Shown: positions 6,111 to 55,640, counted from the stretch's first letter. The stretch: DNA of 64,000 bases from Calditrichota bacterium (GCA_014359355.1 JACIZP010000177.1:662-64661), one strand, 5' to 3'. Program-made: numbers and translations. The notes: generated by a model not told the origin, from the sequence alone.

Positions 6111-6704
6111 CTAACGGAGAAGCTCACTGAGAAGCCACAGTTGCCCGAACGTGAGGAGCAGGCCCCCACAGGCGCCGGCCACCACTTGGGCCAGCGTGTG
6201 TGCCCGCAACCGCAGCCGCGCCCAGCAGACTACCGGCAGCAGAACGTAGGCGGGGAGCATCGCCGCCCCAAAGCCATAGGTGAGGCCCGCCAGCGCCCCT
6301 GCCGCACCCATGGCGTGGGCGCTCATCTTCCAGCGGAGATTTATCAGCGTGATGAGCAGCGTATTTGTGGCGTAGCACCACATCAGACCCCAGACAGAGA
6401 ACGGCGCCCCGATGACAAGGAGGAGCGCCAGACCAACGGTGTAACAGAGCACGGCGATCAGATAAGGCCGGGTGCGCTGCTCACGGATGGGCACGTGTTT
6501 GTCGCTCACTCGCTTTTCCCGCTCCAATTTGAGCACATACGCTGCGGGCAAAATCGAGCCGGTGACCCAACAGATGGCGGTGGTCACCAGCCCCCGCAGC
6601 AAGGAGGTTTCGTCGTGGATGGACAAAGCAAGAAAGGCCACCGCCGAGAGCACGGTGGGCACCGTCACGTTGGAAATCACCTGCGCGATCCGTTCCACTG
6701 TCAT
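6111..6704 (-). CDS. PAP2-superfamily membrane protein (phosphatidic acid phosphatase-like), hypothetical
   Basis: Start placed at internal ATG (MTVERIAQ...) rather than the long N-terminal extension of the ORF track, which overlaps the divergent TrmH-family gene; multiple TM segments and 'KMSAHAMGAAGA' (S-x-H PAP2-like motif). Confidence 0.45.
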   Translation of the reverse strand: MTVERIAQVISNVTVPTVLSAVAFLALSIHDETSLLRGLVTTAICWVTGSILPAAYVLKLEREKRVSDKHVPIREQRTRPYLIAVLCYTVGLALLLVIGAPFSVWGLMWCYATNTLLITLINLRWKMSAHAMGAAGALAGLTYGFGAAMLPAYVLLPVVCWARLRLRAHTLAQVVAGACGGLLLTFGQLWLLSELLR

Positions 6705-6808
6705 CACCTGTTCTCTTCCCGTTCTGTGCGCCGCGCAAAACACTACAAATTTCCGCCCACTTTTGCAAGGGAAAAGTCGCCAGGCCTCGGCGTTGCCGGA
6801 GCGTGCAC

Positions 6809-7345
6809 ATGCGCAAGTTGAGCCCTCTTGAACTTTCCCGCCTCCGGCCGTCGCCTGCCGAGTTGCGCCAGCGCCCACGTAGGCCCATCTACGCGCTGGC
6901 TGACAATGTACGCAGCATGCACAACATCGGCGCGATGTTTCGCACTGCAGACGGCGCAGGTCTGGCCAAGCTCTTCCTTTGCGGCATCTCGGCCTGTCCG
7001 CCACGGCCGGAAATCCGCAAGACCAGCCTCGGCGCAGAGGAGGCAGTGCCCTGGGAGTACGTGCCCAGCGCGGTCCAGGCGGTGCGTCGTCTCAAGGCCG
7101 AAGGCGTGCAGATCGTCATTCTGGAGCACACCGATTGCAGCCACGACTTCCGCGTGGCGCCCTATCGCTTCCCGCTTTGCCTGGTGGTGGGGCACGAACA
7201 CCACGGAGTGTCTGACGAGGTGGTCGCTTTGGCTGACCTGGCGGTCGAAATCCCTATGGCAGGAGTAAAGGAGTCGCTCAATGTGAGTGTGGCCTTTGGC
7301 ATAGCCGTGTATGAGATCGTACGCCACTTCGATGCTCAGCGCTGA
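6809..7345 (+). CDS. TrmH/SpoU-family RNA 2'-O-methyltransferase
   Basis: 'IYALADNVRSMHNIGAMFRTADGAG' (motif 1) and C-terminal 'ESLNVSVAFGIAVYEI' (SPOUT motif 3); GGAG RBS 8 nt upstream of ATG 6809. Confidence 0.8.
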   Translation: MRKLSPLELSRLRPSPAELRQRPRRPIYALADNVRSMHNIGAMFRTADGAGLAKLFLCGISACPPRPEIRKTSLGAEEAVPWEYVPSAVQAVRRLKAEGVQIVILEHTDCSHDFRVAPYRFPLCLVVGHEHHGVSDEVVALADLAVEIPMAGVKESLNVSVAFGIAVYEIVRHFDAQR

Positions 7346-7450
7346 GAGGTGCTGGCTTGAGTGGCAGCGAAGCAGCGAAAAGCTGAGTCTGGGTTATTGA
7401 AGGGGGAGCCGGGTATCTTGCCGCACCTCGCACAGCAAAGAGGACCAGGC

Positions 7451-7621
7451 AATGAAGGCCTTTGTGACAAGGGGGGCGATCTACATCGGCATCAGTGCAG
7501 TGGGGCTCGTCTACCAGTTCGTCTTCGCCGAACAGCCGCAGGCGCTGCCCGTGTTCGTCTTCTGCGCCCTGCTGGGCATCGGCCTGTACTGCCTCCTCGC
7601 CTTGGGCAAATGGCGACCGTG
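7451..7621 (+). CDS. Small membrane protein (56 aa), hypothetical
   Basis: MKAFVTRGAIYIGISAVGLVYQFVFAEQPQALPVFVFCALLGIGLYCLLALGKWRP, two hydrophobic helices; GAGGA ~9 nt upstream; not in ORF track (<60 aa). Confidence 0.25.
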
Positions 7622-7776
7622 AGGAGCCGGCGATGGAGGTTCCGCTACTCAGGAACCCCCGCGGCGACGCGCCACTGTGCCCCCGCTTCTCCCCACGCCC
7701 TGCACAGGCCGAAACGCACACGCCTCGGCCGCACTGAGGACCTGGCCTCCTCGCGCGTAGGCTCCCCCTCGTCGCT

Positions 7777-7815
7777 CAAAAACAAAGCGCCCATCGACCG
7801 CAGGCCGACGGGCGC
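7777..7815 (-). terminator. Rho-independent terminator downstream of the PorV-like gene
   Basis: On minus strand: 13-bp stem (GGCGCCCGTCGGCC/GGTCGATGGGCGC, two G-U pairs), 3-nt loop, followed by TTTGTTTTTG; located 22 nt after the stop of the 7837..8883 gene. Confidence 0.6.
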
Positions 7816-7836
7816 CTGTCAGGTCATCCGTGGAAT

Positions 7837-8883
7837 TCAGAACTTGAGGGTAATGCTAAGTTGCTGCGTGTTGCCCAGTATCTGGTAGTCCGTGTAGGCA
7901 TAGTCCAAAGTCAGGTCCAACCCAGCCACCGCATAGTGCAAGCCGACACCTGCTGCATAACTGGAGGTGTTGTAGGTCTCGTACTCATCGTGCGCCAGCA
8001 CCACACCACGGTAGCCGCCTCGCAAGGCGATGATGTTGTTCCACACGTACTCCACGCCAAAGTTAGACCGCAAGAGCGAGTCGTTGGTATCGGTCGCATC
8101 GGCATAGACGGTGACCTCATTGGACTCACTCTTAGCCAGTTGGCCGTCTACTCCCACCAGACTGGAGGAGATGCCCATGCGGAAGATCATGGGCAGGGGC
8201 CAAACCTCGGTGCTCAGGTCAGCATAACGCGTAGGGTTGCCGGTGTACTCTGGCCAACGCGTGTGGCTGACACGCAGGTCTGGGCCGGAAAGCCGCATAT
8301 TGCCCCCGAAATTGGAAAGACTCATGGCCAATTTCATCCCCAGCAGTCCGGTGTCCAGGAGCGAGCCGAGGTCGACCGCGATCGTGCGCGCCTTCTCCCG
8401 GTAAATCCCCTCCTGGATGAACTTGGCGGTGATGCCCAAGCTCAAGCGATCCGTCATGTAGCGCGCAAAGGTCAGCCCCACGGCGTAGTTACTCAGGCTG
8501 TAGAACGCGCCGGTTCCCTGCGGCATGTCCACTGTGGTGATTTCGATGTCGTCGGAGGTCATGTAGGTGATGCCCACGCCGACGGTGCTCCCTGCACCCA
8601 GTGGATAGGCCAGCCCCAAGAAGTTGTGCGACAGGCCCGCATACATCGAGGAGTAGGAGAAAAAAGCGGACAAGCGGTCCACTGCCGCCACGGCCGCCGG
8701 GTTCCAGTACAAGCCGGTAATTCCCGGCGCTGCCGTACCCGACTCACCGAGCGCTGCCGCCCGGGCGCCGACCCCCACCTTGAGGAACTGCGCGGCGCAG
8801 GTGCCCACGCGTGAGTTCTCCTGTGCCCACGAGGTCAGCACCCAGACCGTCGCGACCAGAAGCACTATGGTTAACTTTCTCAT
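7837..8883 (-). CDS. Outer-membrane beta-barrel protein, PorV/FadL-like (candidate T9SS shuttle protein)
   Basis: 348 aa; signal peptide (VATVWVLTSWAQE); 'GARAAALGESGTAAPGITGLYWNPAAVA' matches the G-x-R-A-x-A-x-G-x-A...NPA motif of FadL/PorV-family barrels; alternating beta-strand pattern to C-terminal F; AAGGAGG RBS. Confidence 0.45.
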   Translation of the reverse strand: MRKLTIVLLVATVWVLTSWAQENSRVGTCAAQFLKVGVGARAAALGESGTAAPGITGLYWNPAAVAAVDRLSAFFSYSSMYAGLSHNFLGLAYPLGAGSTVGVGITYMTSDDIEITTVDMPQGTGAFYSLSNYAVGLTFARYMTDRLSLGITAKFIQEGIYREKARTIAVDLGSLLDTGLLGMKLAMSLSNFGGNMRLSGPDLRVSHTRWPEYTGNPTRYADLSTEVWPLPMIFRMGISSSLVGVDGQLAKSESNEVTVYADATDTNDSLLRSNFGVEYVWNNIIALRGGYRGVVLAHDEYETYNTSSYAAGVGLHYAVAGLDLTLDYAYTDYQILGNTQQLSITLKF

Positions 8884-8946
8884 GATTGGCTCCTTCCGCT
8901 TTCATCCAGTGGCGTGACTGCCACCCTGATGACTTCCGGACCAGAA

Positions 8947-11900
8947 CTACCGCAGTATCGCAAATTTGCCTACCTGGGTTTGCCCATTGGGCGTCTCCAC
9001 CACGTAGAGGTACATGCCGTAGGCCACCTCCTGCTGGTTGAAGCTCAGCATGTTCCAGTAGGTCCAGCTCTGCGTCTCATGCTCGTGGTGAAGGGTATAC
9101 ACCCGCTCTCCGGTAATGGTGTAGATGTGGATGTCGCACTTGTTGGGCAGGTTGGTGAATTGAATCTGCCGCTGGTTGGGGTCAAGCTCCCATTGCGCGG
9201 AGATGATGTACGGATTGGGCACCACGCGCACCTTCTTCAGGTCGGCCTTCTCAGCTTCCCGCACCACATAGCGGCTGGTGTTGAGGCGGAACTTGTCCCG
9301 CTTGCCCACAAAGGGCTTGCCCGAGATGATGCGCAGCACATCGCCAGTCTGCGGGGCCACTCCAGTATCCACCTTCGTGTACACCCACTGCCCATTCACC
9401 AGGGTACTGTCGATGCGCGGAGGCGGAGCCGAAAGCTTGAATGTCCAGGTAAACTTGGCCGGCTTGCCTGTCTCCACCACCTCGCGCAGTTTGAGCTCGT
9501 CACCGCTGGTCCAGGTCGCTTTCATTTGGGGCGTGGTATCCGCTGGGTTTGCGGTGAAGTGACCAAAAGCCGCCTTCTTGTTGAGCGTCAAGTTCCAGAT
9601 CTCAAAAGGCGTAATGTAGGTGGCCGGCTGAAAGGCCGTGTCTGGCTCGCTTACAAACCTAAACTCATAGTCAAAGGGAAAGTCGCCGGCTGGAGTGCCC
9701 GTGACCTGCCAGTTGCAGGGCGACTCCGTGCCGCGCTGCCCCCGGTACCAGTAGGTCGAGTCGGGGTCAAGGCTCACGGTGCTGAAGCGCTCCACCACCG
9801 TGAGCTGCAGGCCATCGAAGATCGGCCCCTCAGCAGAGGCACCCAGTGGACCGTTGTCCACCACCTGCTGACCTGTCGCCTCGTCCAGGACGTCGTAGTA
9901 CTTCACCCCCGGCTTTGCGTCGTCGATGGTAATCAGGTACGAGTGTCCAGTCACCGCGAACTGGTCAAAGATTCTGGCAGTGAGCGTGTTGCCGGTGTAC
10001 GCACCAGGCAGAGCCTCCACTGCGATGGTCGGCGCCACGTAGTTGCTAGGCGTAGGTCCAGGGGTGACCTCCACCAGGTTCGGCGCGGCCTGCGGGTTTA
10101 CCCCTTTGGCGCACTCTAACGAGTTCAGGTCCGCCCACCCGGCTAAAGCTAACGAGTCGCCACGTGCCAGGCTAATGCCCCGGTCGTAGGAGGTCACACT
10201 GTACCAATAAGTGACACCGTTCTTCACGTTGTTGTCCGTCCACGAGTGCACCAGGCCGGTATTGTTGCCGAGGTTGAGGTGCGGGTAGTTGGGGTCAAGG
10301 CCACTCACGTTATCGTTGAGGTCAAATTGCGCCACCGGGATGAACCCCACCGCGTTGCCTAATCCGTCGCGAATGATCTCGCCCCACTGGTTGTTAGTCG
10401 GGTTGGAGGTCGTCCGATAGATACGGTACCCCTGAAAGTCCTTGGCGCCAGTCATCAAGTCGCGGCTCTCCTCGGCGCTGCGGTCCCAGTAGAGGGTCAC
10501 CTTGCCGTCGCCTGGCACCGCCGTGACGCGCGGCGGCGACGGCGGGTCGGCCCCCTGGTAGAACAGCTCGTACATGAACTGCGCATTGCGCGCGTTGAAC
10601 TTGTAGTCTTCGAAATCATCGCCGGCGATCATGCAGAAGCTGAAGGTGGTCGTGTCACCGGCCGGCAGGTCGAACGGCCCTGTGCTCATGATGAACACGC
10701 AGTCTAACCCGGTGGGGAACTTTTCCCTGATCAGCTCCGGCGAATCCAGGTGCGGATTCAGCTTGCCGCTGGGGTCCGGCCAGAAGTAGTTGTCCTGCTG
10801 CTCGATGGACAGGTTCGAGGTGTCGCCGCTCATCAATTTGTACTGCTCCAGCTCCTGCTTGTCCGGGGTCAACACGCCTGGCCGTTGCTCCCAGTTGAAC
10901 CAATGCCAGTCGGTGAGCCCGAGCTGTTGTCCCTCCGGAATATCGATGATCCCGTCCTTGTCCAAGTCCACACCACCCGCGGGAGCCTTCGGCGTCTCCA
11001 GCAGCTTGAGGCCAATATACACCTTCCATGCCGCCGGGTCAGCCACGCCGCTAAAGTCGCCCGTACCCCAACGATAGTCGTAGAAGTAGGCCGTGTTGTA
11101 CCGGTAGGTGGTGTCCTTCTTGGCGTCGTACTCCGAGATCAGGAACCCCATCCAGTCCATGCGGTCGTTGTAGGTAGTGGTGAGGTTGTACTCCGGGAGG
11201 TCCGCATCGATGTAAAAGCCGAAGTAGACTCCCTTGTAATCGTAGCCAATGCCCCGTGGGTCGATCGCCTTGCTATTGTTGATGATCCGGCACGGGAAGA
11301 AGATAAAGTCCTCGGCGTAGGACCTTCCATAGGTGTAGGCAGTCACCTCCACGTCGATGCCAGTGGCATAGCCTTGGTCCACGCGGCCGTCCGCCTCGGC
11401 ATAGCGCTGACCGACGTTGTTGAGGTCATAGTCGTTCATCACGAAAAAGACGTCTTTGTCGGAGGTGAATTTGCCGGGGATGATCTCCCCAGTTTTGGGG
11501 TCCCGCGCCCACGGCCCGGGCCAGATGCGATTGCCACTGGCATCCTTCGGCCAGGAGGCCTCGATTGTGCTGGTGGCGACAATGGGCAGGCCTTTGATGC
11601 TCGACGGCGCATTGGCCATCACGTCGCCCACGGTCACGTCGCCAGAATGAAGCTTGCCGTAGGAGCCGGCCTTGGGGCCCCAGTCTGCGGCCACGTTTCG
11701 CTCCGAAACCGTGGCCCCCATGCTCACCGTGTCACCTTTGACTGGGTCATAGCGCCGCGGTGCCCATGGTCCATCCGGAATGCCCAACATTGGGAAAAGG
11801 TCCGGCACGTAGGACCACCCCTTGTAGAAAAACGCCGGCACCGAGGGTCGGTAGTCCCATGTGGACAGACGGCCGTCGTTAAACACCGCATGCTGCACCT

Positions 11901-12045
11901 TGCCCACATCCAGTATGCCCACGGCGATGTCGCGGCTGTGCATGGGCTTCTGCAGACCCTTCTGCTGTTGCTGGTTCAGGTCCGCTGCCCAGGCCAAGGC
12001 GGCCAGTAGGACAATGCAGAGGAACACGAGCGCTTCTCGTCTCAT
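8947..12045 (-). CDS. Large secreted protein with T9SS C-terminal sorting domain (function unknown)
   Basis: 1033 aa; signal peptide (ALVFLCIVLLAALAWAA); C-terminus 'CDIHIYTITGERVYTLHHEHETQSWTYWN...GMYLYVVETPNGQTQVGKFAILR' is the type-A Por secretion CTD pattern; start moved to second ATG (AGGAGA RBS). Confidence 0.6.
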   Translation of the reverse strand: MRREALVFLCIVLLAALAWAADLNQQQQKGLQKPMHSRDIAVGILDVGKVQHAVFNDGRLSTWDYRPSVPAFFYKGWSYVPDLFPMLGIPDGPWAPRRYDPVKGDTVSMGATVSERNVAADWGPKAGSYGKLHSGDVTVGDVMANAPSSIKGLPIVATSTIEASWPKDASGNRIWPGPWARDPKTGEIIPGKFTSDKDVFFVMNDYDLNNVGQRYAEADGRVDQGYATGIDVEVTAYTYGRSYAEDFIFFPCRIINNSKAIDPRGIGYDYKGVYFGFYIDADLPEYNLTTTYNDRMDWMGFLISEYDAKKDTTYRYNTAYFYDYRWGTGDFSGVADPAAWKVYIGLKLLETPKAPAGGVDLDKDGIIDIPEGQQLGLTDWHWFNWEQRPGVLTPDKQELEQYKLMSGDTSNLSIEQQDNYFWPDPSGKLNPHLDSPELIREKFPTGLDCVFIMSTGPFDLPAGDTTTFSFCMIAGDDFEDYKFNARNAQFMYELFYQGADPPSPPRVTAVPGDGKVTLYWDRSAEESRDLMTGAKDFQGYRIYRTTSNPTNNQWGEIIRDGLGNAVGFIPVAQFDLNDNVSGLDPNYPHLNLGNNTGLVHSWTDNNVKNGVTYWYSVTSYDRGISLARGDSLALAGWADLNSLECAKGVNPQAAPNLVEVTPGPTPSNYVAPTIAVEALPGAYTGNTLTARIFDQFAVTGHSYLITIDDAKPGVKYYDVLDEATGQQVVDNGPLGASAEGPIFDGLQLTVVERFSTVSLDPDSTYWYRGQRGTESPCNWQVTGTPAGDFPFDYEFRFVSEPDTAFQPATYITPFEIWNLTLNKKAAFGHFTANPADTTPQMKATWTSGDELKLREVVETGKPAKFTWTFKLSAPPPRIDSTLVNGQWVYTKVDTGVAPQTGDVLRIISGKPFVGKRDKFRLNTSRYVVREAEKADLKKVRVVPNPYIISAQWELDPNQRQIQFTNLPNKCDIHIYTITGERVYTLHHEHETQSWTYWNMLSFNQQEVAYGMYLYVVETPNGQTQVGKFAILR

Positions 12046-12090
12046 GGTCATTCTCCTGGGGTAGAGTCTACGGTTACCTTTCCTGAGCTG

Positions 12091-15000
12091 CTACATCTCC
12101 AGGCGCAGGCCCAGGTCGATGCGCCGCCGCTCGCCGTACCAGTGCGGGTGGTCATACTGCGTGCTGTACGCCGTACGGCTCATGGTCGGGCCGGGATCGG
12201 TCGGGCTGCCGGTCTCCGAATACACGGTGAGCACGTTCTTGCGGTCCAGGATGTTCCACACTCGTGCCACCAACGCGGCGCGCAGACGCCCGAACAGCAC
12301 AAAGTCCCGGCGGAACACCCCATCAAGCGTCATGCGCCACGGTCGCCGCGCGGTGTTAGGCTCCAGCGCCTGGCCGCCCACCGTCGGCGTGTAGGGGTAA
12401 CCACTGGAGCCGCGGAAGATAAACTGCAGCGTCGTGCGCTCAAACGGCCGCACACCAAAGATCTTCGGGCCTTGCCCTCTTCCCAAAGCGTAGCCAGCGT
12501 TGATGTCGATGACGTGGGTCTGATCCCATGGCATCAGGTACTCCTTCTTCGGCCGGTTCTCCTCGGTGTCACTGTCCCAGTACCCGGCCCAGGAGTAATA
12601 CTTGTTCGCCTTGGCCACAGAGTAAGTGTACTCCAAGGTACCGAAGTAGTTGTCACTGAAGCGCTTCTCCAAGCTGATGTCGATTCCCTTGGAGCTGCCA
12701 AAGTCGCTGTTGTGGATAATCGAGTAGCTGTAGAGCCCTAAGCTGTCCGGGTCAAAGCCGGTGATGCGGTAGCTCCCTGGGTCGCCGTTGTTCTCCTTGG
12801 CCCATGCCGCCACGCTCAGCTTCCAATTGTCGCCAATCTGCTGATCCACGCCCAGTTCATAGGCCTCAGTGCGCGCCGCATCCATATTGGCCCAGCCGAA
12901 CAACGGTAGGGGCGAGTTCAGGTTAAGGGTCTGGTTGGTGTACAGGTCCCGGTAGTCCGGCACCTGGAAGAAGTGGCCATAGGCAAAATGGAAGGTGGCC
13001 CGATCGGTGATCGGATGGCCAATGCCCAAACGAGGGCTCCACTGCCACTTCTTCCTCCCCGTCTGCACCTGCGAGGTGGGATCGTTCCAGTTTTCCCACG
13101 CCCGCCCTTTGGAATCGGCAAAGTCGAAGCGGATTCCGGCGTTGACGATGAGGTTTTCGAACTCCATTTTGTCCTGAATGTACGCTGAAATCTCCACGGG
13201 ATGGGTGTGGTAGTACTCCACATACGGGTTGGCAAGGTAGGGGTGCTGGAGTTCCAGGAAGAACAGGCCTCCGGATTCGCCACCTGCCAGCTTGCCAAGT
13301 AGGCTGTTCTTGTCAAAGCCGAAGGTCTTGTACTCGCCGCCAATCTTCACCTGGTGGCTGCGGTGCGCCTGCCAGGTGAGGCTGCCGGAGAGCTCGAAAT
13401 CCTGCTGGAAATTCCGCGTCCAGTACTGCGTAGTGTAACCGTAGTACACGTAGCGCGGCACCTGCACGCCATGTTCGGTGATGGTATCTACCCGGACGAA
13501 GGTAAGGTCGCACGCAAAACCACCGGTGGAAGTCCTGTCCGGGTATTCCTGTGGGGTCACCGGCCATTCGCGGGCGATCTGCTGGCGCCGGGCCTCGATC
13601 TCCGCATCGGTGGGCTTGCGACCGTTTTCCTTCTCGAACTGCTCGATCCACGTCTCGAGAAATGCATCCCTGAAGAGCTCCGAGTGGCCTGCGGTCAACT
13701 CGTGGCCATCCGGACCATACACGCGATAGCGGCGATGCTTCCAGAAACGTGAGCCGCGCAGCTCGTAAAAGAGCTTGGGGCTCACCTGGTGCGTCCAGAT
13801 CAGACCTTGCTGCTCAGTCTGGTCGGTGACGATGTGGATGCCCTGCTCGGCAAAGCGCCAGAAGTCGTCGAAGTAGCGGAACCGCCGCTGCGTCTGCCGG
13901 TGGGTGTAGACCAACTTCATGCTGGGGTTGATCCGCCAGGAGAGCTTGCCGGCAAAGTCATAGTCGGAGTTGAAGCCAAAAGCCATCCAGCCGGCAGTGT
14001 CGTCCCAACGAATCAGGTCGTTGATGCCGTCACCTTCGCCTGCGTCCTTGGTGTTCGGCTTGCGGTCCTCTCCCCAGTCGGCTTTCCAGGACCACGCCTT
14101 CCGCCAGGCGCCGGTGGCCCAGTGCCGCATCACATCGCCGACGTAGCGGTAGGTGCTGTTGTTGCGCAACTTGTTGATGTCGGTTACTTCCGTGATGATC
14201 CCTGCGTCGATCTGCTCCTGGATCTTCTTGTAGCGAGGATCCTCGGGATGGTCCAGGAGCCAATTGAGCGGTGTCGGGTCGTAAGTGTACTGGTCGTACT
14301 CCAGCACCGTGTACTTGCGGTAGCCCTGTGAGCCAGAAAGGAAGAAGCTCAGTCCCTTAACAAACGGCACCGGGCCGCCAAAGGAGCCGATGACCTGGTG
14401 GGCGTTGCGCAGGTCGTCGCTCTTGGAGCCCAGCCAGCCCGCCACCTCGCCGCTGGTCACCTCCGCCATGCCGGAGTAGTAGTCGCGCCCCTCTTTGGTG
14501 ACGATGTTGACCACCGCCGATTGCGCCTCGCCGTACTCCGCGTCAAAGTTGCCGGTGATGACCGTCAGCTCATCGATGGCCTCCCGGTTGACCGTGGTCC
14601 CCATGCCGGCGTAGATGGCATCTTCCACGTACATCCCGTCCACCATGTAGGCGATCTGGCCACTTCTGCCGCCGCGCACGTGGGTTTGGTCAAGGCCGCG
14701 CGCCTCAAAGCCGGCGATCTTGTTCTGGTAGCCTTCCATGACGGTGATACCCGACTGCAGGGTCATGATGTCCTGCACCGAGCGCACGGGCATGTTGGTG
14801 ATCATCTCCGCCGTGACCGTGGTGCGCTTGGTGGTGACCGAAGGCTCGATGAGCGGCCGCTCTGCTGTCACCTCCACGGCCTTGCCCAAGTCGATCACCG
14901 TGGGGCTGAGCTCAAAGTTGATCTTAGTGGTCAGGTCAACGCTCACCCGCACACCGGTAACCGTCTCCCGCTGATAGCCGATCATGGAAGCCGTTACCCG

Positions 15001-15225
15001 ATAGACGCCAGGCCGCACGTTGATGATGAAGTAGTAGCCGTCAGCGTCGGTTGCTGCCCCCATCTTCGTGCCCTCGATGAACACGTTGGCACCGGGCAGG
15101 GGTTGGCCCGTTTCCTTGTCCTTTACGAACCCGGCGAGCTTGCCTGTGGTGCCAGCAAACAGCGTCACCGGCACTGCCAGCACCAGGGCGAGAGCCAGGG
15201 CCAGGACTACCTGTGCGCGTTTCAC
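12091..15225 (-). CDS. TonB-dependent receptor, SusC/RagA-like (CarbopepD_reg + plug + barrel)
   Basis: GTG start 15225 preceded by AGGAGG RBS; signal peptide; 'GKLAGFVKDKETGQPLPGANVF...DGYYFI' carboxypeptidase-regulatory-like domain; TonB plug (ITGNFDAEYGEAQSAVVNIVTKEG); ~1045 aa typical of SusC-like receptors; C-terminal residue is M rather than the usual F. Confidence 0.75.
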   Translation of the reverse strand: MKRAQVVLALALALVLAVPVTLFAGTTGKLAGFVKDKETGQPLPGANVFIEGTKMGAATDADGYYFIINVRPGVYRVTASMIGYQRETVTGVRVSVDLTTKINFELSPTVIDLGKAVEVTAERPLIEPSVTTKRTTVTAEMITNMPVRSVQDIMTLQSGITVMEGYQNKIAGFEARGLDQTHVRGGRSGQIAYMVDGMYVEDAIYAGMGTTVNREAIDELTVITGNFDAEYGEAQSAVVNIVTKEGRDYYSGMAEVTSGEVAGWLGSKSDDLRNAHQVIGSFGGPVPFVKGLSFFLSGSQGYRKYTVLEYDQYTYDPTPLNWLLDHPEDPRYKKIQEQIDAGIITEVTDINKLRNNSTYRYVGDVMRHWATGAWRKAWSWKADWGEDRKPNTKDAGEGDGINDLIRWDDTAGWMAFGFNSDYDFAGKLSWRINPSMKLVYTHRQTQRRFRYFDDFWRFAEQGIHIVTDQTEQQGLIWTHQVSPKLFYELRGSRFWKHRRYRVYGPDGHELTAGHSELFRDAFLETWIEQFEKENGRKPTDAEIEARRQQIAREWPVTPQEYPDRTSTGGFACDLTFVRVDTITEHGVQVPRYVYYGYTTQYWTRNFQQDFELSGSLTWQAHRSHQVKIGGEYKTFGFDKNSLLGKLAGGESGGLFFLELQHPYLANPYVEYYHTHPVEISAYIQDKMEFENLIVNAGIRFDFADSKGRAWENWNDPTSQVQTGRKKWQWSPRLGIGHPITDRATFHFAYGHFFQVPDYRDLYTNQTLNLNSPLPLFGWANMDAARTEAYELGVDQQIGDNWKLSVAAWAKENNGDPGSYRITGFDPDSLGLYSYSIIHNSDFGSSKGIDISLEKRFSDNYFGTLEYTYSVAKANKYYSWAGYWDSDTEENRPKKEYLMPWDQTHVIDINAGYALGRGQGPKIFGVRPFERTTLQFIFRGSSGYPYTPTVGGQALEPNTARRPWRMTLDGVFRRDFVLFGRLRAALVARVWNILDRKNVLTVYSETGSPTDPGPTMSRTAYSTQYDHPHWYGERRRIDLGLRLEM

Positions 15226-15254
15226 TGCCGCGGCCTCCTCTGTTTGGTGAAAAA

Positions 15255-15270
15255 AAAAGTTGCAACTTTT
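15255..15270. promoter_or_regulatory. Perfect 16-bp palindrome AAAAGTTGCAACTTTT in the TBDR leader (candidate operator)
   Basis: Self-complementary sequence 15-30 nt upstream of the receptor RBS; a second half-site copy GAAAAGTTGCAATTCC lies at 15476-15491 next to a putative -35. Confidence 0.4.
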
Positions 15271-15300
15271 TCCCCATCTGCTGCGTCTTAAAGGTGTGCC

Positions 15301-15358
15301 AAAACAAAAAGGGCGGTCCTCTCCCCTGGATCCTTGCGCGGATTTCGGGAGACCGCCC
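15301..15358 (-). terminator. Strong intrinsic terminator/attenuator hairpin inside the TBDR upstream region
   Basis: Minus strand: GGGCGGTCTCCC-20 nt loop-GGGGAGAGGACCGCCC followed by TTTTTGTTTT; lies between a sigma70-like promoter (15444-15471) and the receptor start, or alternatively terminates the upstream operon ending at 15605. Confidence 0.55.
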
Positions 15359-15443
15359 CCTGGCTTCTGGCACAACGGGCTATTGGCATGGGTCTGGCAG
15401 CTCCTGCTAATAGCCTTTTCTTTTCTGGGGGTTTCTATGCCGT

Positions 15444-15471
15444 AAAATAATGAATCCGCCCCAGTTTGTCA
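15444..15471 (-). promoter_or_regulatory. Sigma70-like promoter (TTGACA-16-TATTTT) reading toward the TBDR operon
   Basis: Minus-strand TTGACA (15471..15466), 16-nt spacer, TATTTT (15449..15444) in an AT-rich island. Confidence 0.35.
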
Positions 15472-15604
15472 AGAGAAAAGTTGCAATTCCGCGGCAGAGA
15501 GACAAGAAAAAAAGTCGACTTAAGGCAAGCTTGTGGGGGAAGGAGCGCCGGCGGGGATTTCGGGCGGAGTTTCGCTGAGGGCAAGCCCGCGCTTTAGCCA
15601 GGGG

Positions 15605-16168
15605 TTAAGCGCCATCAGTCTTTGCGCCTTCCATGCGTGCCCCCTCCAGGTTTGCATGTGCCAGGTGTGCACCGCGCAGGTCGGTGTCGGACAGGTCAGC
15701 CCCCGTCAAGTCCGCGCGCTCCAGGTGAGCACCCCGCAGGATGGCACCTGCCAAGTTCGCCCCCTTGAGGTTGGCGCGCTTCAGCCGTGCGTCGGTCAGG
15801 TTCGCGCCGCGCAGGTTCGCCCTGGCAAGGTGCGCCCCGAACAGAGCGCAGGCAACCATTTCTGCCCTGGCAGCCGACGCCCCCTCCAAGTTCGTGTCTT
15901 GTAGGTTCGTCTCCACCAGCACGGCACCGTCCAGGCGAGCCCGGCTGAGGTTAGCGCCAAACAGGAAGGCCCGCGTGAGATTGGCACCGCTGAGGTTGGC
16001 TCGTTCGAGGTTGGCATTCTGCAGGTGGGCATCGCTGAGGTCAGCATTGCGGAGGTCCAGGCCCCGCAAGTCTTCGTAAGACAAGTCCGCTTCTCGGAGA
16101 TCAAGGCCGGCAAGTGACTCGCCCTGTCGGGCGCGCGCCAGGATCTCCTCTCGGGTCAAACGTGCCAT
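15605..16168 (-). CDS. Pentapeptide-repeat protein
   Basis: 187 aa made almost entirely of A(D/N)LxG(A)xL quintets ([38 protein letters not shown]...). Confidence 0.8.
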
Positions 16169-16177
16169 GGGGTCCTC

Positions 16178-16516
16178 CTAAGCAAAGCTGCGCACCCCCT
16201 GTTCCTCGCTGTCGAACACCTCGAAGACGGAGTCCAGCCGGGTGATCACCAGCGGGCGGCGTGTCCCCTCATTGAGTCCCACCAGGCGCAGGTCACCGCC
16301 GGCGCTGCGCATGGTGGTCAGCCCGCTGATGAGCATGCCCAGCCCGGAGCTGTTCATCCAGGTCACCTGGCTCAGATCCACCAGCACGTTCACGATGCCC
16401 TCGCCGATGGCGCGATAGAGCATCTCGCGGAAGCGTTCGGCGTCTTTGCCTCCCATGAGCTTGCCACTCAGGCCCACGACCAACACGTCCCCCACACGCT
16501 TTTCCTCAAGCTCCAT
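16178..16516 (-). CDS. STAS-domain anti-sigma-factor antagonist (SpoIIAA-like)
   Basis: 'VVGLSGKLMGGKDAERFREML...VLVDLSQVTWMNSSGLGMLISGL' STAS fold with the phosphorylatable Ser in NSSGLG; start chosen at MELEEKRV by alignment with paralog at 55764..56102. Confidence 0.75.
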   Translation of the reverse strand: MELEEKRVGDVLVVGLSGKLMGGKDAERFREMLYRAIGEGIVNVLVDLSQVTWMNSSGLGMLISGLTTMRSAGGDLRLVGLNEGTRRPLVITRLDSVFEVFDSEEQGVRSFA

Positions 16517-16541
16517 GCTTCCTCCTGGCTTTGCCAACAGG

Positions 16542-17789
16542 CTACTCGTACCGCAGTGCTTCGATCGGATCCAGCCGTGCGGCCCTGGCTGCCGGGTAGA
16601 TGCCGAAGACGATGCCCACCAAGGAGATGAACCCCAGCCCCAACAGGACCGCCCACACCGGCACCGCAGCCGGCAGGGGCGTGAGGGCGCCGATGAGCAA
16701 CCCTATGCCCACGCCGAGCACAGCGCCGATGATCCCACCGAACTCACAGATCAACACCGCCTCCAACAGGAACTGCCCCAGAATGTCGCGACGCCGCGCA
16801 CCCACTGCCTTGCGGATACCGATCTCCCTGGTGCGCTCGGTGACCGACACCAGCATGATGTTCATCACGCCGATGCCGCCCACTAGCAGCGAGATGCCAC
16901 AAATGACCAGCGCCGCCACAAAGACAACCTTGGTCACATTGCGCCAGGTCTCCATCAACGAGTCCCTGGTCATAATTTCAAAGTCGTTGGGCTCGCCGGG
17001 CGGCACCCGCCGCACAGCCCGCATAATCCCCGTCACCTCTTCAATGGCCTGATTCAAGAGCTCGGGCCGCACTGCCTTGCAGTCCACATACACACTGCGA
17101 TTCATTCCGTAAAACTTGCCGAAGGTGGAGATGGGAATAATCACATGCGCGTCCTGGCTCTGGCCAAAGACAGACCCCTTCTCCTCCAGTACGCCGATCA
17201 CCGTACAGCGATGTCCATCGATGAGGATGTCCTCGCCCACCGCTTCGCGGAACGGGAAGAGCTGCTCGGCGAGGTCCGTGCCGATGACGCACACCTGCCG
17301 TCGCCGCTGTACGTCCATCTCGTTGATGAAGCGGCCTTCGCTCACGAACTGCCCGTCAGCCTCCTGGCGGTATTGGTCGCCGCCGAAGACCATGATGTCC
17401 GGGTTGGTCTTCTTGTCGCCGTGCCGCAGGGTCGCGCCAAAGCGAAAGACCACCGGTGACACCACGCTGACCAATGTGGCGCGCCGCTGCAGTTCCTCCA
17501 CTTCCTCCAAGGTGATGTTACGCCGGTTGCGGTATTTCTGCCACGAGTCCCCAATCTGTACTGCCGGATACTTGCGGATCTGGAAGGTGTCCGCACCCAG
17601 GACCGACAGCTCTTTCTCCCACCAGTTGTTGAGGCCCTGGATTATGGTCTGCATGCCAATGACCGCGAACACACCGATGATGATGCCCAGCGCGGTCAAG
17701 ATGGAGCGGAACTTGTTCGCGGCGATGGCGCTCACAGACATCTTTATGCTTTCGCGCAAATCCATGGCAGTGTTCGCCTTGCTCCTCAT
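16542..17789 (-). CDS. ABC transporter permease, FtsX/MacB family (MacB periplasmic domain + 4 TM)
   Basis: 415 aa; N-terminal TM then large periplasmic domain, C-terminal FtsX core 'ERTREIGIRKAVGARRRDILGQFLLEAVLI'. Confidence 0.8.
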   Translation of the reverse strand: MRSKANTAMDLRESIKMSVSAIAANKFRSILTALGIIIGVFAVIGMQTIIQGLNNWWEKELSVLGADTFQIRKYPAVQIGDSWQKYRNRRNITLEEVEELQRRATLVSVVSPVVFRFGATLRHGDKKTNPDIMVFGGDQYRQEADGQFVSEGRFINEMDVQRRRQVCVIGTDLAEQLFPFREAVGEDILIDGHRCTVIGVLEEKGSVFGQSQDAHVIIPISTFGKFYGMNRSVYVDCKAVRPELLNQAIEEVTGIMRAVRRVPPGEPNDFEIMTRDSLMETWRNVTKVVFVAALVICGISLLVGGIGVMNIMLVSVTERTREIGIRKAVGARRRDILGQFLLEAVLICEFGGIIGAVLGVGIGLLIGALTPLPAAVPVWAVLLGLGFISLVGIVFGIYPAARAARLDPIEALRYE

Positions 17790-17792
17790 CCG

Positions 17793-19028
17793 CTATTCGT
17801 AACGCAGGGCGACGATGGGGTCAAGCCGCGAGGCCTTCCAGGCCGGATAAAGGCCAGCGAACATCCCCACGCCGCATGAAAACCCCAACCCCAAGAGCAC
17901 GGCACTCGGGGCAATGGTGGCTTCCAAAACGGGCAGCCGCCCCAAGAGCATGCCCACCCCAAAGCCGAGCCCGAGGCCGATTAGCCCGCCCAGGGCGCTG
18001 ATGACCACCGACTCCACAAGAAACTGCAGCATCACATCGGAGCGGCGTGCGCCCACTGCCTTGCGGATGCCGATCTCGCGCGTCCGTTCCGTCACCGAGA
18101 CCAGCATAATGTTCATGATGCCAATGCCCCCGACTAACAGCGACAATGCCCCGATGCCAAAGGCGACGGCGTAGAGCACCCGTGTCAGATTTTTGTAGAG
18201 GTTTTCCAAAATGTCCTGGCGGTTGATGGCAAAGTCGTTCTCCTTGTCCGGCGGCACCTGCCGCACCCGGCGCAAGATGCCGATGATCTCATCTTCCGCA
18301 TCGGCAAGCCGGGAGGCGTCGACGACCTTCACCAGAATCGTCAGGCTGCGCCGCGAGCCGTACAGCTTCTGGAAGATGGAGAGGGGCACCATGACCACGA
18401 TGTCATTGTTCCGCCCGAGCACCTCCCCTTGCTTTTCCAGCACGCCGACCACGGTGAACTTGTGGTCCCCCACGGTGATCTTGCGCCCGATGGGGTCGAC
18501 GCGGTCAAAGAGCTTGGCGGCCACCTCCTGGCCGATCACGCACACCGCGTGTCGTCGCTCCACGTCCGTTTCGGTGATGAACCGACCGAACTCTGGCAAC
18601 ACATTGGCCGCGTCCTTGTAGTTGGCCTCCACGGCGTAGATGGTGACGTCGCTCAGCTTGGTGCTGCCGTACTTGACTGTGCGCCGCGTGCCGGTCATTG
18701 GCGAGACCACCGTGGCCAAGGTGCAGAAGCGCTTCAAGGCATCGGCTTCCTTGGTGGTGATGTTCTTGCGATTGCGATACTTATAGAACTCCCGCCCAGA
18801 GACCCAAGGAAACTTTTGCACGTAGAGCAAGTCAGCGCCCAGGCCGGCGATCTGCGAGTAGACGGCCTTGTTGAGTCCCTGAATGACCGACACAATCCCG
18901 GTGATGGTGGTGACACCGATAATGATGCCCAGCACGGTGAGGAAGGCGCGCATCTTGTGTGCCCACAAGGCCAACACTGCCATGCGGGCGCTGTCCCACA
19001 ATGCTGTGGCAAAACGGATCATGCTCAC
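17793..19028 (-). CDS. ABC transporter permease, FtsX/MacB family (second paralog)
   Basis: 411 aa; same architecture, 'ERTREIGIRKAVGARRSDVMLQFLVESVVI'; 4 nt from downstream paralog. Confidence 0.8.
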   Translation of the reverse strand: MSMIRFATALWDSARMAVLALWAHKMRAFLTVLGIIIGVTTITGIVSVIQGLNKAVYSQIAGLGADLLYVQKFPWVSGREFYKYRNRKNITTKEADALKRFCTLATVVSPMTGTRRTVKYGSTKLSDVTIYAVEANYKDAANVLPEFGRFITETDVERRHAVCVIGQEVAAKLFDRVDPIGRKITVGDHKFTVVGVLEKQGEVLGRNNDIVVMVPLSIFQKLYGSRRSLTILVKVVDASRLADAEDEIIGILRRVRQVPPDKENDFAINRQDILENLYKNLTRVLYAVAFGIGALSLLVGGIGIMNIMLVSVTERTREIGIRKAVGARRSDVMLQFLVESVVISALGGLIGLGLGFGVGMLLGRLPVLEATIAPSAVLLGLGFSCGVGMFAGLYPAWKASRLDPIVALRYE

Positions 19029-19046
19029 CTCTCCTGGCCCGGTCTG

Positions 19047-19727
19047 TCAGTTGATGGCTTCGTCGCGCTCGATCATGCCGTCGCGAAGGCGGATGATGCG
19101 GTTGGTGTGCTCGGCGATGTACTCTTCGTGGGTGACCAAGATGATGGTGTTCCCTGCCTCGTGCAACTTCTCGAAAATGTCCATGATTTCTTGCCCAGTG
19201 CGCGTGTCGAGGTTGCCCGTGGGCTCATCAGCCAGAATGATCGAGGGCCTGTTGACCAAGGCGCGGGCAATGGCCACCCGCTGCCGTTGTCCACCGGAGA
19301 GTTCGTTGGGGCGATGGTGCATGCGGTCGGCGAGCCCCACCTTGGCCAGCGCCTCCTCGGCCAGTTGCCGTCGCTTGCTCGCCGGCGTGCCGTTGTAGAT
19401 GAGCGGCAGTTCCACATTGTGCAGAGCGTCGGCGCGGGGCAAGAGGTTGAAGGTCTGAAAGACAAAGCCGATCTCGCGATTGCGAATCCCTGCCAGTTGG
19501 TCGTCGTCCATGGTCCCCACGTTCTGCCCTTTGAAGAGGTAGCGTCCGGAGGTGGGGGTGTCCAGGCAACCGAGGATGTTCATCATGGTCGACTTGCCTG
19601 ACCCCGAGGGTCCCATGATGGCCAAGTATTCGTTCTCCTCGACGCGCAGGGAGACACCGCGCAACGCGTGCACGCGCTCGGCACCGACCTCGTAAATCTT
19701 CACCACATTCTCAAGCTCGATCAACAT
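19047..19727 (-). CDS. ABC transporter ATP-binding protein, MacB/LolD-type
   Basis: Walker [10 protein letters not shown], signature [15 protein letters not shown], Walker [14 protein letters not shown]-loop. Confidence 0.9.
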
Positions 19728-19786
19728 CTACCACCTCGACAGTTCTGCCTTCCGCAAAGGGACGGCCCCGAAGTCGCCCCGCCCGG

Positions 19787-21072
19787 CTACTTCTTCTCCT
19801 TGGCCACGGGCAGCTTACCGGAGCTAATCTTCACGGCAGCGCCATTCTTGAGCTCTTTGGAAAGCACGCGATAGCTGCCGGTGACCACCTGTTCACCCTC
19901 GCTTACCCCGCTGACGATCTCGATGTCCGTCTCGCTGCTGATACCGGTCACCACCGGGCGCATCTTGGCGACGCCGCCTTCGACCACAAAGACCACTTCG
20001 ATCTGCTTGGGGGCGGCCTGCGCCTTCTTTTCCTCCTCAGACGGTGGCGGTCCGAAACCCTCCATGCTCTCGTCCCTGGTGCCGCCCTTCTTGCGCCGCC
20101 ATTTCGAACCGCCCGCTTGGGCCAGCATTGTCGTATCCTCGGGCGTACGCATGGTGATGCACTGGATGGGGACGTAGAGCGCCTGGTCTTTCGACTTTGT
20201 TTCGATCTCCACGGTGGCCGACATGCCTGGTCTGAGCTGGGGCACGCGGTCCACCACCGACACTTTCACCTCAAAGTTGGTGATCTCCTCCTGGGTGCCA
20301 CGCCCCCGGGTGATGGCGGTGTGGGCGACTTCACGCACCCGCCCCCGCAGTACAGTGTCGGGGATGGCGTCCACCTGGATGCGCGCGCTCTGCCCCTCGG
20401 TCACGTCCACCACATCATTCTCGTCGATCTCGGCGACCACCTCCATGCGCTCCAGGTCGGCAACCTCCATGATGACGTCTGCCTGGAACTGGGAGCCCAG
20501 GGTTATCTCACCCACCTCCTTGTTCAGCTTGATGACGGTCCCATCGATCGGCGACGTAATCGTGGTCTTGGCGAGGTTGTCCTCGGCCTGGGCCAAGGTG
20601 GCCTGGGCCTGTTCGACCTCGCTTTCGGCAAGCATTAACGCCGCCTCGACCGTCTGGAGCTGCGCCAACGAGGTCAGCTTCTGCGCGTAGAGCTCCTTGG
20701 CGCGCTCGTACTCGGCGCGCGTCTTGGTCAGGTTAGCCCGTGCCGATTTCAGGGTCGAGCGCGCCCTTTCCACTGCCGCCTCGTACTGTTCACGCTCCAA
20801 GCGAACCAGGAGCTGCCCACGTCGCACCTGTTGGCCCTCGCGCACCGGCAGCTCCACGATCTTGCCGGCCACATGCGCGGCGATGTTCACCTTGAGCTCC
20901 GGTTGCACCTTCCCCGAGCCGGAGACGATCTGGGTGATCGTCCCCCGCTTGACCGGCGCCACCGTCACCTCGAGTGCCTTCTTCTTGGCTGACTGGCTGC
21001 CGAGTATCACGGCCAGCGCTATGACAACCGCCAGGCCCACCAGGAAAATGACTGTTCTCTTCTTCTTCGCCA
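19787..21072 (-). CDS. Periplasmic adaptor subunit (MacA/HlyD-family membrane fusion protein)
   Basis: Start at MAKKKRTVIFLVGLAVV (N-terminal TM anchor); long coiled-coil segment (REQYEAAVERARSTLKSARANLTKTRAEYERAKELYAQ); beta-barrel/MP domains. Confidence 0.8.
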
Positions 21073-21102
21073 TTGCCACTTCTCCAGCTGTGTCACCTTC
21101 AA

Positions 21103-21564
21103 CTATGGGGAAAGGAGCGTGAACACCTGACTGCGCATGAATTGTCCGTCCAGATAGACCTCCACCCACCAATCACCTGCCGGTGCAGAGGCCGCCGTAT
21201 CCAAGTAGAACCAGGTGACCGCATGCCCGCTGTCGGAGGTCAACTCCACCTCGCGATGGCCCTGGAGCTGCCCCTCGGGGTCGAACCATTTGGCCCCCAC
21301 TGTGTGCGTCTTGTACCAGTTGCCCCACCTGATCCAGAGGTAGACGACGTCATCCACCCGAAACGTGGCAGTCACCAGGACCGGATGCGACTCTTCGTCC
21401 ACCGCGACGCAGGTGAAGCACTCGATGATGTACGGCTCATCCTTGGTGGGCGCCACTACGCCGCCCCCTTCGCCCTCTATTTTCTCGCAACCGGGCAGCC
21501 CGGCCAGCCCTAAGAGGCAAGCAAGGAGGCCAACAATCGAGCCGCGTGCCATTGGCAACACCAT
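21103..21564 (-). CDS. Small lipoprotein, hypothetical (between TolC and adaptor genes)
   Basis: 153 aa; signal peptide ending LAGLPGC (probable lipobox Cys); no recognisable domain. Confidence 0.45.
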   Translation of the reverse strand: MVLPMARGSIVGLLACLLGLAGLPGCEKIEGEGGGVVAPTKDEPYIIECFTCVAVDEESHPVLVTATFRVDDVVYLWIRWGNWYKTHTVGAKWFDPEGQLQGHREVELTSDSGHAVTWFYLDTAASAPAGDWWVEVYLDGQFMRSQVFTLLSP

Positions 21565-21575
21565 GGGAGCCTTTC

Positions 21576-27451: not shown

Positions 27452-27535
27452 TACACGCTGTGAAGCGGGTGGGATGAACGGTATCGGTCGTCACTCTCTG
27501 CTTCAGGGGCACAACCATAAGCAGTGGAGGCTGAG

Positions 27536-54312: not shown

Positions 54313-54365
54313 TGCCCTTCTCCCCGCTCGTGCTGAACGGTAGCTGGTCTGTAGCGATGATGCGA

Positions 54366-55640
<1,275 letters not shown>

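Follow-up and report, generated by a model that had tools for sequence, protein, structure and literature searches.

We analysed a stretch of 64,000 nucleotides from a Calditrichota bacterium (GCA_014359355.1, JACIZP010000177.1:662-64661), here called the window, and describe a set of three consecutive minus-strand open reading frames (ORFs) that lie within positions 7837-15375. In the order of transcription they code for a TonB-dependent receptor, a large secreted protein which we call the middle protein, and an outer-membrane β-barrel of the PorV kind. The gaps between the genes are 39 nt (receptor/middle protein) and 63 nt (middle protein/barrel). By inspection all three proteins have a Sec-type signal peptide at the N-terminus, and the GC content at the trio, 60-62%, is the same as over the whole window. 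A first-pass annotation of this DNA had seen here a three-gene operon with a clean terminator, coupling a SusC-like receptor to a cargo secreted by the type IX system (T9SS) and a PorV/FadL-like barrel without SusD.

The operon is confirmed. An intrinsic terminator (7785..7817, minus strand) follows 20 nt past the stop codon of the barrel gene; its stem of 15 bp, 10 of them GC pairs, is closed by a loop of 3 nt and followed by the tract TTTGTTTTT. At the other end a sigma-70-type promoter-like site, TTGACA-17-TATTTT (15444..15472, minus strand), is found about 220 nt 5′ of the receptor start codon; its 10/12 consensus matches are a consensus match only, as the region holds no more such sites than shuffled sequence. 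The 5′ leader of about 220 nt between this site and the start codon (15226..15443, minus strand) contains a T9 run and a GGAGG ribosome-binding site. The trio is an operon between one promoter-like site and one strong terminator. No Rfam family was matched anywhere in the window, the leader included, and the idea of a riboswitch-controlled vitamin transporter is therefore unsupported. The leader (15226-15443) could hold a regulatory element of an unrecognised kind. Likewise, none of the large window ORFs that were scanned contains a SusD-type Pfam family, in line with the earlier statement that SusD is missing.

The receptor gene (12091..15225, minus strand) codes for 1044 aa. The ORF itself reaches 15375 (farthest TTG, 1094 aa), and its residues 1-50 are not protein-like. 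A GTG at position 15225 can be taken with near certainty as the true start, because a GGAGG is present 8 nt 5′ of it and because the predicted signal peptide VKRAQVVLALALALVLAVPVTLFA begins there; the resulting length agrees with the previous estimate of ~1045 aa. On the minus strand follow one another the signal peptide (15154-15225), a CarboxypepD_reg N-terminal domain (~14908-15138; PF13620 72.5 bits, PF13715 67.3 bits), a plug (~14518-14838; PF07715 41.4 bits) and a large β-barrel (~12094-14517; PF00593 62.4 bits). A TonB-box-like motif, VEVTAERP, is also present. PF07715 and PF00593 both exceed their Pfam cutoffs and so identify a generic TonB-dependent receptor. With the SusC/RagA model TIGR04056, however, the protein reaches 50.2 bits where 368.25 are required, and the alignment is limited to residues 79-296 of the ORF, that is, to model positions 2-206 of 981. 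The N-terminal domain matches weakly the SusC N-terminal domain 9hfj. A family profile (A3) built from 30 trio-linked receptors is equidistant from transporters of known structure whose specificities differ widely (Cir, PqqU, YncD, PhuR, a homologue of SusC, and RagA), with 57-77 bits for all of them. By these comparisons the receptor is a TonB-dependent transporter of the generic kind, whose N-terminal layout resembles that of SusC, and it is no SusC itself. The label SusC-like is thus appropriate for the architecture (CarboxypepD_reg, plug, large barrel) and not for the family.

The middle protein (8947..12051, minus strand) is a secreted multidomain protein of 1034 aa. Its structure was modelled from an alignment of 41 homologues (A1), and the model is confident (pLDDT 84.7, pTM 0.66). 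It is all-beta and nearly free of helices and does not contain a catalytic (alpha/alpha)6 barrel. A signal peptide (aa 1-22; 11986-12051) is followed by a beta-rich head (aa ~40-500; 10552-11934), an Fn3-like domain (aa ~501-660; 10072-10551), a stalk of three small variable beta-sandwiches (aa ~661-945; 9217-10071), a linker modelled with low confidence (aa 948-959) and a T9SS-like C-terminal domain (CTD) of a distinct class (aa 961-1034; 8950-9171), which is a six-to-seven-strand sandwich. According to the model and to fold-similarity searches run on PDB libraries, the head is predicted to be a galactose-mutarotase-like beta-supersandwich without a recognised catalytic domain. Pfam and NCBIfam gave nothing above cutoff for the middle protein, only sub-threshold matches to the CTD and weak matches to the C-terminus of PorU and PorZ; a search of its profile against the PDB sequences yielded marginal CTD and Fn3 matches only. 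In the family alignment (A1) the mean identity to the window protein is highest for the Fn3-like domain (0.56) and the CTD (0.55), lower for the head (0.48) and lowest for the stalk domains (0.31-0.34). Invariant acidic and His residues are numerous, among them D198, D207, E247, D248 and H383 in the head. The partner of the receptor is thus predicted to be a large all-beta protein of the surface type, not a helical SusD, and to have no recognisable catalytic module. The structure prediction, which had been proposed as a check, upholds in this respect what had been seen by eye.

The CTD deserves closer attention, since the first-pass annotation had called it a T9SS sorting domain. It misses all CTD models, namely TIGR04183 (17.0 vs 23 bits), PF18962 (13.8 vs 27) and CHU_C (PF13585; 20.6 vs 27). 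Among 42 relatives, PF18962 is matched at E ≤ 0.01 by a single one and CHU_C by 12, the latter weakly (best E = 0.00048). In structure, on the other hand, the domain looks like a CTD: it is a C-terminal Ig-like sandwich of ~75 aa that contains a PNP motif and ends in a G-x-Y / K-x-x-x-K tail, and it resembles the CTD of PorZ. The tail of the window protein reads VVPNPY...YGMYLYVV...GKFAILR, and the motifs PNPY, G-Y-Y-V and GKF-V-R are set in a seven-strand Ig sandwich. The PNPY motif is similar to that of type A and has an insertion. We compared the last 95 residues of middle-protein CTDs from KSB1, Calditrichota and Marinimicrobia and of one variant with a different head. These CTDs score 63-129 bits among themselves, and at most 34 bits against the canonical type-A CTDs (NYPNPFNP...K-M-x-L-L-K) found in the same loci and in the window, whereas the canonical CTDs score 55-80 bits mutually across phyla. 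By sequence, the CTD of the middle protein is therefore a separate conserved class, neither type A nor type B by model. Under the strict HMM condition that the first-pass annotation had set for its own refutation, the protein would count as having no CTD. The term sorting domain was thus right as far as motifs and predicted fold are concerned and wrong if it is taken to mean membership in a curated family. The models for PorU (NF033707, 23 vs 420 bits) and PorZ (NF052228, 17.2 vs 260) align with the middle protein over the CTD only.

The third gene (7837..8883, minus strand) codes for an outer-membrane barrel of 348 aa with FadL fold. It belongs to the PorV/PorQ family NF033709 with 177.8 bits (cutoff 90), and residues 30-348 cover model positions 3-326 of 326. 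The protein stays below the equivalog cutoffs for PorV (NF033710, 68.8 vs 250 bits), PorQ (NF033711, 84.8 vs 220) and PorV2 (NF052325, 74.5 vs 325). By these scores it is a separate subfamily and not PorV, PorQ or PorV2 proper. PorV is the sole PDB sequence match (6h3i, E = 3.8e-6). With the AlphaFold model of the barrel (pLDDT 88), Foldseek places PorV of F. johnsoniae on top (8gl6_F, E = 1.1e-15, TM 0.67; also 6h3i_F), followed by the FadL/TodX/TbuX group and CymD at E values of about 1e-8 to 1e-9. PF03349 (FadL) does not match the window barrel at E ≤ 0.1, and no PorP/SprF model is listed for it at this threshold. Its relatives are named "PorV/PorQ family protein" at NCBI, and some of them carry precomputed PF03349 matches. 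The earlier description as a PorV/FadL-like barrel is therefore well justified.

How widespread is this arrangement? A profile search of 1.84 billion cluster representatives returned 1852 proteins of the middle-protein family at E ≤ 1e-30 and 6141 at E ≤ 1e-10. Of the representatives at E ≤ 1e-30, those examined show no Pfam domain other than in the CTD. All named relatives are annotated as "hypothetical protein". The closest ones are 92% and 87% identical and come from metagenome-assembled genomes (MAGs) of candidate division KSB1 / Candidatus Oleimicrobiaceae, as expected from the first-pass annotation, which had placed the DNA in a non-Bacteroidota lineage. Many members of the family match only profile positions ~440-1030, that is, the Fn3-like domain, the stalk and the CTD, and have other N-terminal heads. 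From the sequences the family looks modular, with a constant module for anchoring and positioning and with exchangeable heads. Eight relatives with different heads were compared with Pfam. Two Marinimicrobia loci have PKD arrays in their second cargo, the CTD matches CHU_C weakly in two cases, and nothing else was found.

For synteny, one genome per GTDB species was scanned. At least 580 stretches encode relatives of the middle protein and 80 of these were fetched. The labels of the fetched loci include KSB1, Calditrichota (with one MAG that bears the name Caldithrix abyssi), Marinimicrobia/Neomarinimicrobiota, WOR-3, Stahlbacteria, Ignavibacteriales/Melioribacteraceae, Cloacimonetes and several MAGs labelled Bacteroidota. 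In most of the 80 loci receptor, middle protein and barrel are encoded on one strand, as judged by tblastn with the window proteins and all-against-all clustering of the ORFs. Adjacency was counted by ORF cluster membership, as a strict tblastn count misses different heads and second tandem cargos and is too low. Where there was room for a neighbour, the gene directly upstream of the middle-protein gene belongs to the receptor family in 42/58 cases and the gene directly downstream to the barrel family in 48/62. Both flank it directly in 32/49, with median gaps of 13.5 and 11 nt. Many of the misses are second tandem cargos, ORFs fragmented in draft MAGs, or cases with one inserted gene. The trio is also present in four further loci (L082, L084, L085, L086), for which genes had been called independently and labelled with Pfam beforehand; their middle proteins are 52-57% identical. 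In a Fidelibacterota locus (L083, 43% identity) an extra gene of 283 aa without Pfam match (12167-13018) is inserted between middle protein and barrel. Given the same gene order in most of the 80 loci from several phyla and in the independently called contigs, the arrangement is far beyond chance. The first-pass annotation had staked its reading on synteny in relatives, and the trio is indeed strongly syntenic. Some genomes have several loci, for example the Calditrichota MAG M_MaxBin.061 with three (L002, L026, L076) and the Calditrichia chromosome OZ245730 with two (L019, L080).

The barrel gene is linked to one class of CTD. We built HMMs (hidden Markov models) for the two CTD classes and applied them to all CTD-bearing ORFs of the 80 loci and the window. 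A PorV-family gene directly follows the gene of a protein with a CTD of the middle-protein class in 49/64 cases, and that of a protein with a canonical CTD in 0/92; this is a contrast within neighbourhoods and not a genome-wide one, as the loci were picked via the middle-protein family and the HMMs were built from the same sequences. Four Marinimicrobia loci (L039, L069, L062, L050) have the order receptor - cargo A - barrel - cargo B - barrel, and the two barrels of each locus are 100% identical proteins over the compared length, with DNA identities of 97.5-100% over ~1.05-1.14 kb. The copies are located at 8827-9846 and 12055-13074 in L039, at 12411-13445 and 17304-18338 in L069, at 12417-13437 and 16805-17824 in L062, where one copy was split by the ORF caller, and at 12310-13332 and 15482-16504 in L050. 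The barrels of L039 differ at 13 nucleotides but at no amino acid and are therefore real duplicates and not an assembly artefact. The identity of the copies looks like concerted evolution or gene conversion, or like a very recent duplication under strong constraint. The repeat also takes in about 70-120 nt of the end of the CTD that precedes it, and the two cargos of a tandem locus have in common only the CTD (60-68% identity) and one domain of ~250 aa (~40%). In another locus, L022, two cargo-barrel pairs have diverged both in the CTD (34%) and in the barrel (28%).

There is thus one barrel per cargo, and the barrel tracks the CTD and not the remainder of the cargo. This fits a cognate anchor and not a general shuttle. 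If a cognate pair is defined operationally by linkage of the barrel to a single CTD class and duplication together with the cargo, cargo and barrel form such a pair. From the gene patterns we propose that the barrel is better read as a dedicated anchor of the CTD encoded upstream. The term PorV-like shuttle of the first-pass annotation is accordingly less apt: one barrel gene per cargo gene and identical barrels in the tandem arrays are better explained by an anchor. It has been described that cargo proteins which retain their CTD are held on cognate PorV-like barrels, as in PorU-PorV, PorZ-PorQ and the pairs of type-B CTD proteins with PorP/SprF (PMC10202324).

We now turn to the surroundings of the trio. 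Directly upstream of it in the window, on the minus strand at 15605-22964, a TolC-like OEP-family protein, HlyD, an ATPase of the ATP-binding cassette (ABC) type and two MacB-type permeases form a tripartite export pump, which is trailed by two genes unusual for such a pump, for a STAS protein and a pentapeptide-repeat protein. Downstream are two ORFs without Pfam match (7278-7721 and 6111-7004) and then RNA 3′-phosphate cyclase. On the opposite strand, 3.5 kb downstream of the operon, a protein of 863 aa with a weak MGH1-like (GH63-type) domain is encoded (1741-4332, plus strand); this is the only glycosidase-like gene seen near the window trio. The window further contains genes of amino-acid catabolism, namely for proline dehydrogenase, a Na+/alanine symporter and an M28 peptidase.

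Two other cargo genes of the window support that the genome uses a T9SS. One codes for a secreted protein of 317 aa (32041-32994, plus strand; the ORF extends upstream to 31822) with a bona fide type-A sorting domain (TIGR04183, 36.1 vs 23 bits). The other codes for a probable T9SS cargo of 1480 aa (50071-54513, minus strand) that combines five lamin-tail domains with CARDB and DUF11 and has a C-terminal domain similar to FlgD_ig/CHU_C. An ORF of 1485 aa (27524-31981, plus strand) with a signal-peptide-like N-terminus, high GC content at third codon positions (GC3) and no Pfam or NCBIfam match directly precedes the smaller of these cargo genes.

In the relatives the neighbours are richer. Directly upstream of the receptor, 33/80 loci encode a further cargo (cluster 3, e.g. 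L011 2244-4319) of ~520-690 aa with a canonical type-A CTD and Asp-box-like repeats (GVTWSD, DKGATFS, KGKTWG), which is propeller-like. It is absent from the window and may be a fourth, optional component. Downstream cargos with canonical CTDs are a MAM-domain protein (cluster 6) and an S8 subtilase with FG-GAP repeats (cluster 5), in nine and 11 loci respectively, plus L086. A comparison of clusters 3, 5 and 6 with the window ORFs gave matches to the CTDs and to no other part. Other companions are gamma-glutamyltranspeptidase, together with a carboxypeptidase-like gene and a DctM-like permease; LacI next to a sugar ABC transporter; and, in L082, GH31 and acetyl-xylan esterase upstream of the trio. 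Such neighbours belong to nutrient acquisition, and they hint at peptides in some lineages and at glycans in others. The modelled fold of the head hints at glycan binding.

From the operon structure, the family assignments, the folds, the synteny across phyla and the separate CTD class with its linkage to the barrel gene, we derive the following proposal. We lean towards the view that the trio, as an autonomous operon, gives rise to an outer-membrane complex for nutrient acquisition, in which a surface capture protein is anchored by its CTD to a dedicated barrel and feeds the receptor. The middle protein would be exported via Sec and then the T9SS. It would neither be released nor linked to a lipid; instead its uncleaved, family-specific CTD would dock into the barrel encoded downstream and keep the protein on the surface. 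The Fn3-like domain and the variable stalk of beta-sandwiches could hold out the supersandwich head, and the head could capture, and possibly process, an oligomeric substrate. Finally the captured substrate would be handed over to the co-transcribed receptor for energised import. The pair of protein and barrel would functionally replace the SusD/RagB lipoprotein of the Bacteroidota. The different substrate-capture arrangement hinted at by the first-pass annotation is still a proposal, and it is now much better founded. More tentatively, and with somewhat less conviction, we suggest that the trio could be a widespread, hitherto unrecognised machine of the Fibrobacteres-Chlorobi-Bacteroidetes (FCB) superphylum, in which a new T9SS CTD class is read by its own barrel and tethers a modular capture protein beside a TonB-dependent transporter. 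This would be a "utilisome" independent of SusD and of lipoproteins, with swappable heads and several paralogues per genome.

Several points weigh against this proposal. As the CTD is below all curated HMM cutoffs, the dependence on the T9SS is argued from motifs, fold and analogy, and the 64-kb window holds no T9SS core gene (SprA/Sov, GldK/L/M/N). The weak matches to the C-terminus of PorU and PorZ are no help, as they are generic to CTDs and are also given by two other cargo ORFs of the window. That the three proteins physically interact is something we infer. Some relatives of the middle protein have no receptor or barrel next to them, namely in a Zhuqueibacterota locus (L081, 8001-11027) and in five Marinimicrobia loci (L061, 9203-12385; L066; L074; L075; L077). 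Further, the neighbours conflict, with peptidases in some lineages and glycosidases in others. The window trio and several KSB1 relatives have no adjacent enzymes or regulators, and two KSB1 trios are embedded among housekeeping genes; the substrate therefore cannot be read from the context. We note separately that the receptor-less Marinimicrobia subgroup (the five loci just named) has conserved neighbours of its own (clusters 16-18).

Which other explanations have to be considered? The middle protein might be a surface-anchored enzyme, a novel glycoside hydrolase, lyase or peptidase with its active site in the head, which cuts polymers for import by the receptor. The many invariant acidic and His residues of the family would suit an enzyme and some supersandwiches are catalytic; the searches described above recognised no catalytic module. 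We consider this rather unlikely. It would leave the architecture as it is and alter the role of the head only.

A second explanation reverses the direction of transport. Oar is reported to be a TonB-dependent transporter required for secretion of the protease PopC in Myxococcus xanthus (PMC6434023). By analogy the receptor of the trio could work outward and secrete or expose the middle protein, with the barrel as shuttle or anchor and without a classical T9SS translocon. The layout of CarboxypepD_reg, plug and barrel is common to Oar-type receptors, the receptors of two relatives match PF25183 (OMP_b-brl_4), and the strict order receptor-cargo-barrel with gaps near zero would suit a dedicated secretion unit. 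The window receptor, however, has no PF25183 match at E ≤ 0.1. Moreover, the cargo bears a T9SS-CTD-like domain with the motifs and the fold given above, canonical T9SS cargo is encoded in the same genome and the same loci, and the second tandem cargo is accompanied by a barrel of its own and not by a second receptor. Finally, a plugged barrel of 22 strands is ill suited to let a folded protein of ~110 kDa pass. Export through the receptor is thus improbable in our view.

It is still harder to believe that the trio is a housekeeping module for T9SS attachment, in which the middle protein would be the lineage's own analogue to PorU or PorZ, seated on a PorV/PorQ barrel and serving the processing of cargo in general, and the receptor would merely be a neighbour. 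Such an analogue was suggested by the weak NCBIfam matches (23 vs 420 bits and 17 vs 260, over the CTD only) and was dropped because the other window cargo match alike; in addition, the middle protein has neither a C25 peptidase domain nor beta-propellers, several paralogous trios with different heads occur in one genome (three loci in M_MaxBin.061, two in OZ245730), cargo-barrel pairs are arranged in tandem and the linkage to the receptor is conserved across phyla. Equally far-fetched is that the barrel, instead of anchoring the middle protein, imports hydrophobic compounds beside the receptor as a true channel of the FadL type: the FadL fold with its Foldseek neighbours FadL, TodX, TbuX and CymD and the PF03349 matches of some relatives would speak for it, but the window barrel passes NF033709 and not PF03349, has PorV as its best match in structure and in PDB sequence, and its gene follows only CTDs of the middle-protein class (49/64 vs 0/92) and is duplicated with each cargo.

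We therefore return to the anchored capture complex and its meaning. The literature we searched, which mostly leaves out subscription journals, contains no description of a trio of receptor, CTD cargo and PorV-like barrel, and such an absence is not proof; neither the genome paper on Caldithrix abyssi nor a Marinimicrobia genome paper mentions it. A conserved operon that joins an anchored T9SS-type cargo to a TonB-dependent importer thus looks undescribed. It is not categorically new, because all components belong to known superfamilies and all proposed steps have precedents. Uptake of polymer-derived nutrients is known mainly from the SusCD-type systems of the Bacteroidota and hardly at all from their abundant, mostly uncultured sister phyla, among them the oceanic Marinimicrobia and, from sediments, Calditrichota and KSB1. 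If our proposal is correct, these phyla would have a defined capture apparatus, and T9SS biology would gain a further CTD class with its cognate barrel. The T9SS would then assemble import machines, beyond secreting enzymes and adhesins. The trio could be a route of polymer uptake in KSB1, Calditrichota, Marinimicrobia, WOR-3 and Ignavibacteria. It would also be a marker for annotating thousands of "hypothetical" proteins of ~1000 aa. On the specificity between CTD and barrel, a natural experiment is offered by the tandem arrays in which two cargos have identical barrels.

The trio shares features with several known systems: by its proposed function it is akin to SusCD/RagAB and to other receptors with a surface partner, by the logic of its assembly to the cognate pairs of barrel and cargo in the T9SS. 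In PorZ-PorQ and PorU-PorV, which belong to the attachment complex of P. gingivalis, a barrel of the PorV/PorQ family holds on the surface a T9SS cargo with its CTD retained (PMC10202324). The barrel of the trio is of the same family. In contrast to these proteins, the middle protein carries neither a sortase domain nor propellers, and HMMs do not identify it as PorU or PorZ. Furthermore, the trio pairs adjacent genes, occurs in multiple copies and is linked to a receptor, and its presumed role is nutrient capture and not the processing of cargo. In the type-B systems a distinct CTD class is clustered with a dedicated barrel gene as well, as in SprB-SprF of F. johnsoniae and PG1035-PorP, and the dedicated PorV-like barrel is thought to anchor the uncleaved cargo (PMC10202324). 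CHU_C is also the best Pfam match of the middle-protein CTD, yet below threshold (see above). Different are the family of the barrel, which is PorV/PorQ in the trio, and the CTD with its type-A-like PNPY motif and insertion; the linkage to a TonB receptor is new.

Outside the T9SS, Oar of M. xanthus is likewise a receptor of ~1000 aa with a CarboxypepD_reg N-terminus, and it is reported to have a functional tie to a protein that is secreted (PMC6434023). For the trio, however, we propose import as the direction of transport. No link of Oar to a CTD-bearing cargo or to a PorV-like barrel is known. Comparable as well are BtuG-BtuB and XusB-XusA of Bacteroides and TbpB-TbpA of Neisseria. In each of them a mostly beta surface partner, which is not a SusD, sits beside a transporter, captures the substrate and delivers it. 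The structure of BtuB-BtuG (8p97) is among the weak structural matches of the trio barrel. BtuG, XusB and TbpB are lipoproteins held by a lipid anchor, whereas the partner in the trio would be exported by the T9SS and anchored by a protein barrel.

A further comparison is with SusC/SusD and RagA/RagB, from the loci by which Bacteroidota utilise polysaccharides and peptides. Here, too, a large TonB-dependent receptor with an N-terminus of the CarboxypepD_reg type is co-transcribed with a surface partner encoded directly downstream, several paralogous copies per genome are found in some lineages, and the flanking enzymes and regulators vary (next to the trio these are S8 peptidases, GH31/AXE1, or a sugar ABC transporter together with LacI). 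The receptor of the trio, however, fails TIGR04056, and its partner is an all-beta protein of 1034 aa with Sec signal peptide and CTD and not an alpha-helical lipoprotein. The trio includes a third gene, that of the PorV-family barrel, as an obligatory part.

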